Virus record (IMG/VR): IMGVR_UViG_2698536392_000016
Direction: 5' to 3' (one strand)
DNA length: 13,952 nucleotides
DNA from: a virus
Taxonomy: Duplodnaviria > Heunggongvirae > Uroviricota > Caudoviricetes
Made by a program: the position numbers. Below are positions 6,001 through 12,000 of this stretch, one piece after another (position 1 is the first letter of the stretch; each line of letters starts with the position of its first letter).

Positions 6001-9000
6001 TGAATAAGTTCACGAATCGTTGTAGGCTTGATCAGGCATTCGTAGTACTTCCCCATCCAGGCTGCGAACGGGGTGCCGGAAAGTCCAAGAACCCTGATGT
6101 CTCTGTCCCGGATAACCTCAAGTAACGCACGACGCTTCATGTGTGCTTCATCGATGATCAGCAGATCGATGTTGTCAGGAAACTCACGACGGATCAGCGT
6201 GTCGGCACTGGCAATCTGAATCAGTCGTGACGGGTCATAGTTAGGGTGATCACGCCATACAAAACTGATTTCTTCCCACGGCAAACCGTATTCGGTGAAA
6301 CGTTCCGCTGTCTGGTTCAGCAGGATGGTGTACGGACAGACAAACATCACTCGCATACCACGTTCAACCATTCCGGCGGTGACGAATGCTGCAAGACCAG
6401 TTTTGCCAGAGCCAGTGGGTGCGTACATCAGGTACGTGCGATGCTGTTTCCACTGGTGCCGCAGCTGGTTTAAACCGCGCTCCTGAGCAAAGTTTGGGGT
6501 GATTTTCAGCATGACGCCCCCTTGCCATTCGCCGGGATGATATCGATCCCAGCATCGCTATAACTGGTCAGTTTCTTTGGCATTCGAAGCAACACAAAGC
6601 CTTCAGTGCCACGACGTGCCAATTCACGCAATTTCATGACTGAGCGGGGTCGAGGAGAGCTACGATCGATCTCAATAGCCACACTCCCACCAGTTTTTGC
6701 TGTTGCGAGAATATCAACACGGAAATTTCTGCCATCGATTCTTACTGTGACATTGCTTGCCACATGCATCCCCTGTGACTCAAGGATCGTTACAACATCA
6801 GCCAGAAAGCTGTAACGCTCCTCTGTTCTCAGTGGTACAGTGCTCAGTGTACGGATCAGTGCCGATTTGGTTTCTGCTGACATAGCTTATCACTCAATAG
6901 TTAGCTCGATAATCATTTCACCAGAAACTATCGCGCGCTTATACAGTGATCTACCTAACCTATGTACCTGCCTTCTGGCCTAGGCCAAGGGATACAGGCC
7001 TTACCAACGACTCCACCCCCTTACCCCCTCCTCGCTTCCTTTCAGGAAATTAGTTGCACGTGAAATTATCTCTAGCGCAACTAACCGCCATCATGGTGTC
7101 GGGGGAAACTTCCGTACCGCTACTGGCGAAAGCATCCAGCCACGGCTGGCTCTCGCGTACTTCTGGACATACACCCGTAACCGGGTGTTGGCGCTCCGTC
7201 TTGCCCTGTTGCCCTTCCTGAACGATACAGGCTCCTTGTCCCACTCTTCCTGGTACACTCTCGCGTACTCTGCTGCAATTTTTACCCGGGTGGTCGGGTC
7301 TAGCTGTAACAATTGCTCCTGTATCCAGTCCCGATCAGCATCACAGTACTGCTCGGGCATAACCGTTTTGATTTGCCTGTTCACTCACACCTCCGATGGG
7401 CTGTGTGTCCAGGATTAATCATCGCCTCTTACGAACGCAGGGAACGGACGAACCTCTTCCGCCTCAACTGTGCCGTCATCAAAGGTTTTGACGTATATTT
7501 CTCGTCCGACGAGAAGCGCTTTACTGATTGCACTCTGCGCCACGCCAAAGTCCTTAGCGGCTTTCTTTTGGCCGAACCTGTATACGTAATCAGCCAGGGT
7601 CTCTTTTTTCATCGCCATAACTGACTCCTTCAAAATGCCCATATCATTACGCACAGTTATTAAAATGTCAACACCGCAGATATTTCATTACATATAACCA
7701 AAGGTGATATGGTATGAACATGAAAAAGAAACCGTTAACCCCTGAGCAACTGGAAGACGCCAAGCGTCTGAAAAGTATTTTTAACGCTAAAAAGAAAGAG
7801 TTAGGCCTGTCGCAGGAATCATTAGCCTATGAATTAGGTGTTACCCAAAGCGCTGTTAATCAGCTAATGGCTGGCATCAACGCCATAAATGCCAGCCACG
7901 CAGCACAGCTTGCTAAGATACTGAATGTAAAGGTCGGAGATTTCAGTCCCAGCCTGGCAAAATCTATTGCAGAAATGGCGCTCGCAATTGAAGAGCCATT
8001 AACTCGTGTCCCCGCTTACGAATATCCGTTACTCTCCTGCGTACAAGCTGGCGCATTCTCAATGGATGATATTTCGTACACCGCAAAAGATGCGATTAAA
8101 TGGATCTCCACCACCACAAAAGCCAGTGACAGGTCGTTCTGGCTGGAGGTCAAGGGGCATTCAATGACCGCACCGCAGGGTGGTAAACCCAGCTTCCCTG
8201 AAGGTATGCTGATACTCGTTGACCCTGAACGGGAAATCGAGGATGGCGATTTTTGCGTGGCCCGAATGAACGGCGATGAATTTACCTTCAAACGATTCAT
8301 TCGTGAGAGCGGTAAAGCGTACCTGGAGCCGCTCAACCCACGATTCGACATGATTGAGTGTAACGAAAACTGCCAGTTTGTCGGAAAGGTCATCAAATCG
8401 CAGTGGAATGATGAGACTTTTGATTGAGCTCACAGAGTGATTTGACATCCTTCACGCCTGAAGAATGTGGAGGATGTCAAAAGCACGTTGGCATCATCAT
8501 GCCACGTAAAGAGGATTAGTTATGCTTCAAAAGCTAGACGTCGCAGACAGCGTGCGTCGCGAGCTGTCTCCCCGTACCGCGCGTAAACACAAAGCAGAGT
8601 TCGGCCAGTTCATGACGCCTTCTGGCGTGGCCCGTTTTATGGCCTCCTTGTTTCCACCGAGCACAATGAAAACTTGCCGTCTACTGGACGCAGGCGCTGG
8701 TGTAGGCGCACTGTCTTGCGCCTTCCTCGACCGTTGGCTGGTTGGCGAGTTTGGCTTTGAGTCTGTCGAGGCAACAGCCTACGAAATCGACAAAAAGCTG
8801 TGTGGTCACCTTGCGAAGCACTTAACCGGGTACAGGAGAGTGACGCCCCGCATCATCGAAGGGGATTATATTGAGCTGGCAACCGCCGAAGGTCTACAGG
8901 ATCGAGGTTATACCCATGCAATACTTAATCCGCCTTACAAGAAGATCAATAGCCAGTCAGCCCACCGGCAGGCTCTTCGCACTGTCGGTATCGAGACGGT

Positions 9001-12000
9001 AAATCTGTATTCCGCCTTTGTTGCACTGGCTGTAGGTGAGGTTGCACCTGGCGGGCAGATAGTGGCCATAATCCCACGTAGTTTCTGCAACGGACCGTAT
9101 TACCGTCCGTTCCGTAATTTCATACTTGAGCGGGCAGCAATCCGCCATATTCATTTGTTCGAATCACGTAGCAAAGCTTTCAGGGATGACGATGTGTTGC
9201 AGGAAAATATTATCATCCGCCTGGAGCGTGGAGGCCGTCAGGAGGCTGTTACAGTCACAACTTCGACCGATGATAGCTTTTTTGACCTGGTCACCTACGA
9301 ACACCCATTTGACCAGATTGTGTACCCGGACGATTCGGAGCGGTTTATTCATGTGCCGACCACGCTCGAGAAAAGCACCATTGAGTTATCATCTGCCGTA
9401 CAATGTTCGCTGGCTGATATTGGCGTGAAGGTATCGACCGGACCGATAGTTGATTTCCGACTGAAAGCTCATTTGCGCAGCATGCCAGAAGAAGGAACTG
9501 TTCCCCTGATCTACCCGAGCCATTTGAGTATGAGTAGCACTGTCTGGCCTGTGGAAGGTTTGAAGAAACCCAACGCAATCATGCGCAACGACGAGACAGA
9601 AAAGTGGCTTTACCCGAACGGTTTTTATTGTGTGGTGCGTCGTTTCTCGTCGAAGGAGGAAAAGCGCCGAGTGGTAGCAAGCGTCGTTGATCCTGCTACC
9701 TTCAGTGAGTATTCAGTGTTGGGATTTGAAAATCACATGAACGTGTTTCATGAGAACAAACATGGGTTACCCGAGGCGCTGGCCCGTGGCTTGGCCGTGT
9801 TCCTGAACACTACCGCAGTGGATAAGTATTTCCGTCGCTTCAACGGGCATACACAGGTCAATGCAACCGACCTCAAGATGATTAAGTACCCAAGCCGTGA
9901 CACTCTGATAGAGCTTGGCAAGTGGGCTATGCAACAAGAAACTCTCACGCAAGAACATATTGACGCTAAGCTAGGAGCTCTGACTGCATGAACAACCAAA
10001 ATGATTATATTGAGGCCGCTCAGCAAATTATAGCATCCTTAGGCCTGCCCAGAGCGCAGCAGAATGAGCGTTCTGCTTTGTGTTTGCTGGCACTCCTGAA
10101 CCTCACACCGGGAAAAGCATGGGCCGACGCGGAAAATCCGCTTGTGAGCATTACACCAATCATGAATTGGGTTCGGGAGCACTACGGCAAGGTCTACGCA
10201 CCCAATACTCGTGAGACATTCCGCCGCCAGTCTATGCATCAGTTCTGCGCTGCTGGAGTAGCCCTCTACAATCCGGACAAGCCCGATCGCCCAGTGAACA
10301 GCCCGAAGGCTGTTTATCAGATCGAACCTGCTGCTCTGTCCATGCTACGCACTTTCGGCAGCCCGGCATGGCACGATAGCCTTGCAACCTATTTAGCCGA
10401 GCGTGAAACGCTGGTTACCCGCTATGCTAAGGAGCGCGAACAGAATCGTATCCCTGTTGAAATTGCTGCGGGCCAGCAAATAACCCTCAGTCCCGGCGAG
10501 CACAGCGAACTTATCCGTGCCATAATAGAGGACTTCGCCCCACGTTTTGCTCCGGGTAGCGTGCTGGTCTATGCTGGCGACACTGGCGAAAAGTGGGGCT
10601 ACTTCGACGCTCCACTGCTGGCCGGGCTAGGTGTTGATGTGGATTCACACGGTAAAATGCCAGATGTGGTGCTACATTTTACTGCGAAAAACTGGCTGCT
10701 ACTGGTTGAGTCTGTCACCAGTCATGGACCGGTTGATGGGAAGCGGCATGCTGAGCTTGCCAGGCTGTTTGCCGGATCAACAGCCGGACTTGTCTATGTG
10801 ACCGCTTTTCCAAATCGCTCCATCATGGGACGATATCTTGGTGAAATCGCATGGGAAACAGAGGTATGGGTGGCTGATGCACCTTCTCATCTTATTCACT
10901 TCAACGGAGTGCGATTTCTTGGCCCCTACTCTACTGAATGAGTACAGGACCAGATAAATAGCCCGGCCCATGCGCCGGGTTTTTCTTTGCATATCCCCTC
11001 CTGTTATCTGTCCCCTTAAAAAATAAATCACTTTAAAAATCAGTTAAGTAATAATTTTTCGCCCTTAAAAGCACTGGCGGTATTTACACTAAAATCACCG
11101 CAAGTTATATTTATTTCAAGCCAGAAACATCGCGCCCTTACACAGGGCTACATAAATCAGTCGTACGGCGCGACTTAACCCGCCGCAAAATGCTCTTTAA
11201 CAATCTGGAGCTTTACAGCGTCAATGACCTGTTTAGACCCCTACACGTAAACGTGCTGTATCATCGGGTGCGATCCGGTCGATGAGAGAGTATCCCCGCG
11301 CGAGAGCGAGAACGGCGTGAAAACGGGCAACACTGGCAGGAAGTTGGCGCTGACCAATACAGGGAATGTTTTGGGGTGCAGGCGGCACCGCCAAAGCGTT
11401 TCTGAGAAAGGACGGTATTGACTGCGTGTGATGTCGGGGCTATATTGAGCGAACACCTTATAAAACGGGTGTCGGGATTGCTACCCCGATGATGACTACT
11501 GCGCATAACCGCGCTCAGGCGGTTTTTTTATGCGTAATGCACAGCCACATTCAAATTATGGTGGGGCGTGCGGGGCAGCCACAAGGCTGGCCGGTTTCGG
11601 TAGTCACCGGTTGTAGCAACCCTGCACGTCTCACCACCCATGAGATTGCTACCTCCGGTGGTGAGTTATTTAAACTGACTATCGAGGCTGCTATTATGGC
11701 TACTATCCCTGCCCTTTCTCACCCTGACGTAACCATCGAAAACGGACGCGCTGTCACTACGTCTATTGCGATCGCTGAGTTCTTTGACAAGCAGCATCAC
11801 CATGTTGTTCAGAAAATAGAATCCCTCGAATGCTCTGAATGTTTTTTAACCAGCAACTTTTCGCGGGTTAAATTCGAACACAGAGGCAATACCTATAACG
11901 CCTATCAAATCACCAAAAACGGCTTCGTTTTTCTGGTGATGGGCTTCACAGGCAAAAAAGCAGCTGCATTCAAGGAAGCCTACATTGCTGAATTCGATCG

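Follow-up and report, generated by a model that had tools for sequence, protein, structure and literature searches.

EcoGIII is a type IIP restriction-modification (R-M) system that was characterised in the 2011 outbreak strain of Escherichia coli O104:H4 and published in 2012. As recounted in later papers that cite Fang et al. 2012, it is PstI-like, and it both methylates and cleaves CTGCAG (PMC6602927, PMC3893438). Since 2012 the system has been seen in strains of serogroups O104, O111, O145, O157 and O103. In the O104:H4 strain C227-11, and in the O104:H4 phage P13374, where its two genes are ORF31 and ORF30, the order is cI, methyltransferase, endonuclease, terminator and leftward operator (OL), and the published product of methylation is CTGC(m6A)G, with m6A standing for N6-methyladenine. 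BsuBI from Bacillus subtilis and PstI from Providencia stuartii share with EcoGIII the endonuclease family, a gamma-class m6A methyltransferase and, according to the EcoGIII literature, the CTGCAG specificity. Their genes are chromosomal; those of PstI are divergently transcribed, whereas the two BsuBI genes are reportedly co-oriented and similar in size to the pair described here (Xu et al. 1992). Here we describe a methyltransferase (M) and endonuclease (R) cassette at positions 8428-10989 of the phage record IMGVR_UViG_2698536392_000016, a stretch of 13,952 nucleotides (nt) analysed as a whole and called the window below. This cassette lies in a prophage immunity region, between the cI repressor gene and the leftward operator and promoter (OL/PL).

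The proteins of the window were nearly indistinguishable from those of P13374. Identity was 237/237 for cI, 488/489 for M (ORF31) and 316/317 for R (ORF30), and the gene order cI-M-R was common to both phages. The two substitutions were V61 in M, where P13374 has L61, and S54 in R, where P13374 has G54. A REBASE-derived account of EcoGIII gives rare codons at AUA15, CCC21 and AGA22 of R and at CUA5 and CCC17 of M (PMC6456624). Codon positions read from 9988 for R and from 8522 for M matched this list exactly, so both start codons agree with those of EcoGIII. We put the probability at about 0.92 that the cassette is an allele of EcoGIII, a PstI/BsuBI isoschizomer for CTGCAG, carried as a moron between cI and OL/PL of a lambdoid Stx2a prophage. 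The cassette is thus not new. The preliminary description of the window had pointed, correctly, to a reported PstI isoschizomer on the Shiga toxin 2 (Stx2) prophage of an outbreak lineage of Shiga toxin-producing E. coli (STEC); that system is EcoGIII.

Close copies were widespread. The 2562-bp segment 8428-10989 had 100% identity to dozens of Stx2a phage records and 99.8% identity to prophages in O157:H7 and O111:H8 genomes, and the two proteins were 97-99% identical to copies from O103:H2 and Shigella sonnei. Among 5426 complete E. coli genomes, 139 contained the cassette, without exception on the chromosome, as did 98 phage records. A word-indexed protein search with R returned near-identical E. 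coli alleles only.

Over its full 13,952 bases the window was 100% identical to LC727840 and sister records. Segment 8428-10989 was also 100% identical to four chromosomes: CP027459 (strain 90-3040), CP027445 (2013C-3492), CP027325 (2013C-4830) and CP013029 (2012C-4227). Strains 90-3040 and 2013C-3492 are O172:H25 members of clonal complex 119 (CC119; PMC10132054), and a genome announcement on two strains, O119:H4 and O165:H25, includes 2012C-4227 (PMC4683243). By the strain names of the identical RefSeq chromosomes, the window is assigned to the sapB-integrated Stx2a phage of STEC CC119 (O165:H25/O172:H25). We take 2012C-4227 to be the O165:H25 strain of its pair. The sapB-integrated Stx2a phage of CC119 is long-tailed and ancestral to the lineage (PMC10132054), whereas the O104:H4 phage is short-tailed and its sequence differs from ours past window position 12291. 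The words "restriction" and "methyl" are absent from the CC119 paper, and the cassette has therefore gone unremarked in this lineage. What we add is that the long-tailed Stx2a phage of CC119 carries the EcoGIII cassette, in a form with a single substitution per enzyme.

The M gene (8522-9991, plus strand) encodes an M.EcoGIII-type N6-adenine DNA methyltransferase of 489 amino acids (aa). It has a Shine-Dalgarno sequence, AAGAGGA, 6 nt 5' of its ATG. The coordinates first given for the cassette, 8428-10989, delimit the right segment, but 8428 is the first position of the gap between cI and M and not of a gene. We recognized the motifs FGQFMTP (aa 27-33, motif X), LLDAGAGVG (aa 54-62, motif I) and NPPY (aa 136-139, motif IV), followed after motif VIII by a C-terminal target-recognition region of ~250 residues. 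From the order X-I-IV and from this C-terminal region M is assigned to the gamma class, as the preliminary description had proposed from the NPPY motif. The Pfam family Eco57I was matched above its cut-off (E = 3.3e-9, 37.5 bits, cut-off 25.3), and the PADLOC model MTase_II (PDLC03227) was matched over positions 1-489 of 494 (E = 2.1e-248). All NCBIfam matches of M were below their cut-offs.

At 9988-9991 the sequence reads ATGA, in which the stop codon of the 489-aa open reading frame (ORF) overlaps the start of a 317-aa ORF, as had been described. This second ORF is R (9988-10941, plus strand), an R.EcoGIII-type type IIP restriction endonuclease of the BsuBI/PstI family, with the Shine-Dalgarno sequence AGGAG 10 nt 5' of its ATG. 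The proposed PstI/BsuBI-type type II system was borne out by profile searches, in which M matched Eco57I and R matched a restriction endonuclease family from end to end. Pfam BsuBI_PstI_RE_N (PF17728) covered residues 7-143 of R (profile 3-139 of 140, E = 2.7e-54) and BsuBI_PstI_RE (PF06616) covered residues 155-307 (profile 1-153 of 154, E = 4.6e-61). The PADLOC model REase_II (PDLC03420) was matched over the full length (E = 1.8e-167), and residues 8-315 aligned with the crystal structure of SdaI (2IXS, E = 8.7e-77). RefSeq labels the pair [quoted passage not shown] and "BsuBI/PstI family type II restriction endonuclease". The likeness of the window proteins to BsuBI and PstI themselves is stated at the level of families (PF17728 and PF06616, which bear their names).

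An exhaustive representative search gave 2770 relatives of R, and conservation was read from an alignment of 36 diverse full-length members. R79, P225, D226, R253, W294, H304 and G307 were invariant, and E241 was kept in 35 of the 36; all of these residues are present in the window R. D226 and E241 align with D233 and E248 of SdaI. Going by these alignments, R has a winged-helix DNA-binding domain at its N-terminus and a PD-(D/E)XK nuclease domain, with intact catalytic residues, at its C-terminus, the same two-domain architecture as SdaI. The two enzymes differ in that SdaI recognises the 8-bp sequence CCTGCAGG, and in that its K251 is T244 in R. The latter was rejected as a catalytic defect, Thr being the commonest residue in the column (20/36). 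The M-R pair is real and almost certainly functional.

No controller (C) gene was found in the cassette: plus-strand ORFs of at least 50 aa in 8428-10989 were M, R and two ORFs nested in them. The 840-position PADLOC model PDLC03359 was matched by both window proteins, by M over positions 12-510 and by R over positions 531-839. Many distant R homologues (P0121, P0124, P0125, P0128 and others) form the C-terminal ~310 residues of proteins of 810-886 aa. Together these matches and proteins show that single-chain M-R fusions exist in the family. Compared with these fused relatives of ~840 aa, the M and R of the window are separate, presumably translationally coupled genes in different frames.

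The activity of EcoGIII has been documented for copies of the cassette that are at least 99% identical to ours, with methylomes obtained by single-molecule real-time sequencing of O104, O111 and O145 strains. In O111 lysogens, 2390/2390 and 2434/2434 chromosomal CTGCAG sites carried m6A, and in O145 strain RM13514 this was the case for 2868 of 2902 sites, or 98.8% (PMC6602927, PMC3893438). Cleavage of unmethylated CTGCAG has been reported for an enzyme that differs from the window R by one residue (PMC3893438, PMC7736820). EcoGIII leaves CTGCAG uncut if its A is modified (PMC7736820). When cloned in recipient cells it reduces plasmid transfer, ~10^4-fold for wild-type pESBL (PMC4288162, PMC7736820). 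According to PMC6602927, the system also protects against lambda-like phages, and in C227-11 it has an effect on growth and on how ~1,900 genes are expressed.

By homology, the window M is predicted to make m6A at CTGCAG (CTGC-m6A-G), and the window R to cleave unmethylated CTGCAG and to be blocked by m6A. In a lysogen, M would convert the adenine of every CTGCAG on the chromosome and prophage to m6A, and R would cut incoming unmarked DNA, making the lysogen resistant to unmodified phages and plasmids. Both the restriction barrier and the whole-chromosome methylation that the preliminary description had predicted for lysogens are on record for the near-identical copies, with 98.8-100% m6A and with restriction of phages and plasmids. 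The sequenced cultures consisted overwhelmingly of uninduced lysogens, and the sole CTGCAG methyltransferase was on the Stx2 prophage. Methylation of 98.8-100% thus implies that M is expressed in the prophage state. EcoGIII is in this way a barrier to other phages and plasmids that is carried by a toxin phage, and it rewrites the methylomes of STEC strains from outbreaks, as was established in 2012.

On the whole, the phage does not avoid its own target. The two CTGCAG sites named in the preliminary description (697..702 and 4619..4624) are both present; 3.9 were expected in the window, and the sequence is neither enriched nor depleted. Over the whole phage there were 15 sites in 50 kb against 14.1 expected, and overall avoidance of CTGCAG was rejected on this count. 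Since its own sites are not avoided overall, the phage depends on M as long as R is present, in agreement with what had been expected from the two sites.

With respect to its position, the cassette occupies the slot that holds rexA-rexB in lambda and gene 40A in phi80, on the same strand, 3' of cI and before a terminator and OL/PL. The placement between cI (7714-8427) and a strong terminator (10960-10989), upstream of OL (11094-11109), had been correctly described, and the comparison with rexAB held for position, strand and terminator. The resemblance is positional: no Rex families were among the Pfam and PADLOC matches of the window proteins, and lambda Rex and the cassette, both phage-excluding functions expressed in lysogens, have no sequence relationship. 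Rex acts by abortive infection, whereas the cassette forms a restriction barrier of the classical kind and marks the host genome as well.

The contents of this slot are variable. The 3' end of the window cI was found in 147 complete E. coli genomes, and 139 of these had the cassette. Where the cargo is another one, similarity to the window breaks off 8-14 nt past the cI stop codon (the query ends at 8435-8441), and the sister prophages with other cargo have the same cI, cro and replication genes. In UCPROB-001 (L009, 4375-6495) the slot contained a small membrane protein, an SDH-family Clp-fold serine protease and HicAB, and in strain 48 (L010, 4400-5274) a small ORF and HicAB. Decayed cassettes were found in G6/7 (L008, 4508-4810) and in PhiR12_3 of ECOR13 (L004, 2758-3060). 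There, ~230 nt of unrelated sequence stand in place of M and the first ~213 codons of R. What is left is a 3' remnant of R of ~100 codons, which still carries the annotation of a BsuBI/PstI endonuclease. In O145 phages such as Lys12581Vzw, the same M-R accompanies a different cI N-terminus and cro, and in Lys12581Vzw a SocA-family gene and a partner lie between R and OL (L005, 4608-5458). The slot between cI and OL is an exchangeable, rexAB-like moron site, which makes the comparison with rexAB apt as a positional and functional analogy. To this site we add HicAB, a Clp-fold protease, a SocA-family pair and a decayed endonuclease as possible contents.

HicAB toxin-antitoxin pairs hold the same slot in sister prophages. 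Type II R-M systems act as addiction modules (Kobayashi and co-workers), and the broad effects on expression and growth reported for C227-11 would fit a regulatory role. The main selected role may therefore be stabilisation of the prophage by post-segregational killing, epigenetic rewiring of host expression, or both, and not defence, though we hold this to be rather unlikely. Restriction of lambda-like phages and of plasmid transfer has been shown directly for EcoGIII, and the decayed cassettes of G6/7 and ECOR13, in which M is gone and R truncated, indicate that loss is survivable. Defence and stabilisation or rewiring are also not mutually exclusive. Methylation of rRNA was rejected as an alternative function. 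The phages PA2 and PA8 carry an EcoGIII-type cassette, but the methyltransferase of the PA2/PA8 paper (2023 Nucleic Acids Research) is another gene, gp5 of the MT-A70 family, disrupted by IS629.

As to transcription, M-R is on the cI strand, 94 nt after cI, and is probably the distal part of the cI transcript from the repressor maintenance promoter (PRM). The full methylation seen in lysogens speaks indirectly for this. Consensus scans found no plus-strand promoter-like site between 7714 and 9185 and no plus-strand terminator between cI and 9185; the sole strong terminator follows R. A cI-M-R message would start at PRM, and at any establishment promoter, and end at 10960-10989. The terminator there has a stem (10960-10981) with 6 G-C pairs among its 8 and, after it, the T-run TTTCTTTG; its folding energy is -14.5 to -16.2 kcal/mol, and it was invariant in P13374, PA2 and PhiR12_3. 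By analogy of position it would correspond to lambda t-imm, which keeps the lysogenic transcript out of the PL operon; the terminator at 10960-10989 would likewise keep read-through from cI-M-R out of it. The M-first order and the ATGA overlap plausibly couple translation of R to that of M and bias early expression toward protection.

The 94-nt gap between cI and M is highly structured. It holds a 16-pair hairpin (8441-8481) and a second hairpin (~8485-8507), and it folds at -33.7 kcal/mol (z = -3.96), with none of 200 shuffled sequences as stable. The stem of the first hairpin has G-U pairs, which fits a plus-strand RNA. Neither hairpin is followed by a U-run. In PhiR12_3 both arms of the 8441-8481 hairpin are kept and the loop is replaced, and in other copies of the gap the hairpins are identical, barring a single base inserted into the loop in Lys12581Vzw.

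The left arm of the first hairpin includes a TTGACA hexamer (8442-8447), and two hairpins between cI and M could uncouple their messages. The cargo of the slot is also swapped as a block that begins 8-14 nt past the cI stop codon, and cloned EcoGIII works from plasmids, though in an arabinose-inducible pBAD vector. Taken together, these features could mean that M-R is an autonomous unit with a constitutive promoter of its own in or near the gap, for which the neighbourhood of cI was merely a tolerated insertion point. We find this unlikely. The hexamer has no acceptable -10 element at a distance of 16-18 nt, and a separate promoter in the gap was rejected as a candidate, as the scan of 7714-9185 found none. 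Both hairpins are without a U-run, so that transcripts from PRM should read through.

We think it quite unlikely, but the conserved double hairpin (8441-8507) could be a functional RNA element, such as a site of RNase III processing or a stability site. If so, it would determine how much methyltransferase and endonuclease is made relative to repressor and take the place of the controller protein that the cassette lacks, and on establishment of lysogeny in a naive host the entry of the cassette would be safe.

Several points weigh against the picture of an active EcoGIII allele expressed with cI. The results of Fang et al. 2012 are taken second-hand, through later papers. The window allele is separated from the assayed enzyme by G54S in R and L61V in M. 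Transcription together with cI is inferred, and the two very stable hairpins of the gap could attenuate or process the message.

With regard to the substitutions, residue 61 of M stands at the x of the GxG motif, a variable position. Of the E. coli and Shigella alleles sampled, the window allele alone had S54 in R: the eight others, two of them only 97% identical, had G, as did SdaI. In the alignment of 36 family members, column 54 had G in 20, T in 6, R in 5, S in 2 and K in 2, and as a strong claim, G54S as an inactivating change was rejected on this variability. From the sequence there is no reason to expect a loss of activity from either G54S or L61V. It is highly improbable that G54S has attenuated or killed the endonuclease and left M effectively an orphan, as the restriction of S54 to this allele might suggest, given that G fills just 20/36 of the family column, that the invariant residues of the catalytic domain are all intact, and that the exact S54 allele was found on 221 contigs without further decay.

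The window as a whole is the early and immunity region of a Stx2a prophage. Its minus strand carries stx2B and stx2A (369-1609), three tRNA genes (1700-1951), Q, ninG/ninH, a primase-like gene of DUF7146, a DEAD-box helicase (4992-6512) and, marking the immunity region on its OR side, cro (7415-7618). The Pfam Cro match (E = 4.8e-34) was obtained with ORF 7415-7654, and RefSeq annotates the 204-nt version. The promoter scan found a PR-like promoter on the minus strand at 7671-7643. The cI repressor (7714-8427, plus strand) had the domains HTH_3 (E = 8.2e-10) and Peptidase_S24 (E = 9.5e-29). An operator-like site of the pattern ATCACC-N5-TTATA (7693-7708) adjoins the cI start, and the same pattern recurs at 11094-11109 as ATCACCGCAAGTTATA. 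These were the only two exact matches in the window, and were accordingly taken as OR and as OL/PL.

An imperfect OL-like site lies at ~11072-11088. Both OL sites overlap a PL-like promoter (11083-11111, plus strand; TTTACA-17-TATATT, 10/12 consensus matches). The segment 3' of it (11191-11378, plus strand) is nutL-like: it was 93.6% identical to the part of phi80 annotated as nutL boxA and nutL core, and from this the direction and identity of PL follow. The annotated phi80 genome has an equivalent layout of cI, cargo, OL-PL and nutL. No N-like ORF was found in the window after the nutL-like region. In P13374, an ORF annotated "antitermination" sits further downstream, in sequence past 12291 that is not common to the window.

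After the cassette, the plus strand continues with an Ash/Rha-type regulator, kil, gamL and the start of recT. Rfam matches to isrK (11453-11529, 57 bits) and to C4 antisense RNA (11554-11641, 79 bits) came directly after PL and nutL, with a promoter-like site (11418-11446) just upstream. Both RNAs overlap the beginning of an ORF (11489-12340) that has Ash and Rha domains. The region 11418-12340 looks like an antirepressor control module in the PL operon, of the P1/P7 immI-like or Gifsy isrK type.

The 15 CTGCAG sites were unevenly placed along the phage, 12 of them within 33.6-40.3 kb. Bases 1-21069 of LC727840.1 had none against 5.7 expected, a boundary that was chosen post hoc; these 21,069 bases reach from the left end of the record, by way of the PL operon, the cassette and the immunity region, through the helicase. 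Downstream of stx2B we detected the small RNAs AsxR (35-87, plus strand, 88 bits) and STnc100 (89-294, minus strand, 199 bits), both of which are known next to stx2B in Stx2 phages. The third tRNA (1876-1951) was called tRNA-Met (CAT) by ARAGORN and tRNA-Ile in RefSeq, which is the usual ileX-type ambiguity of the CAT anticodon.

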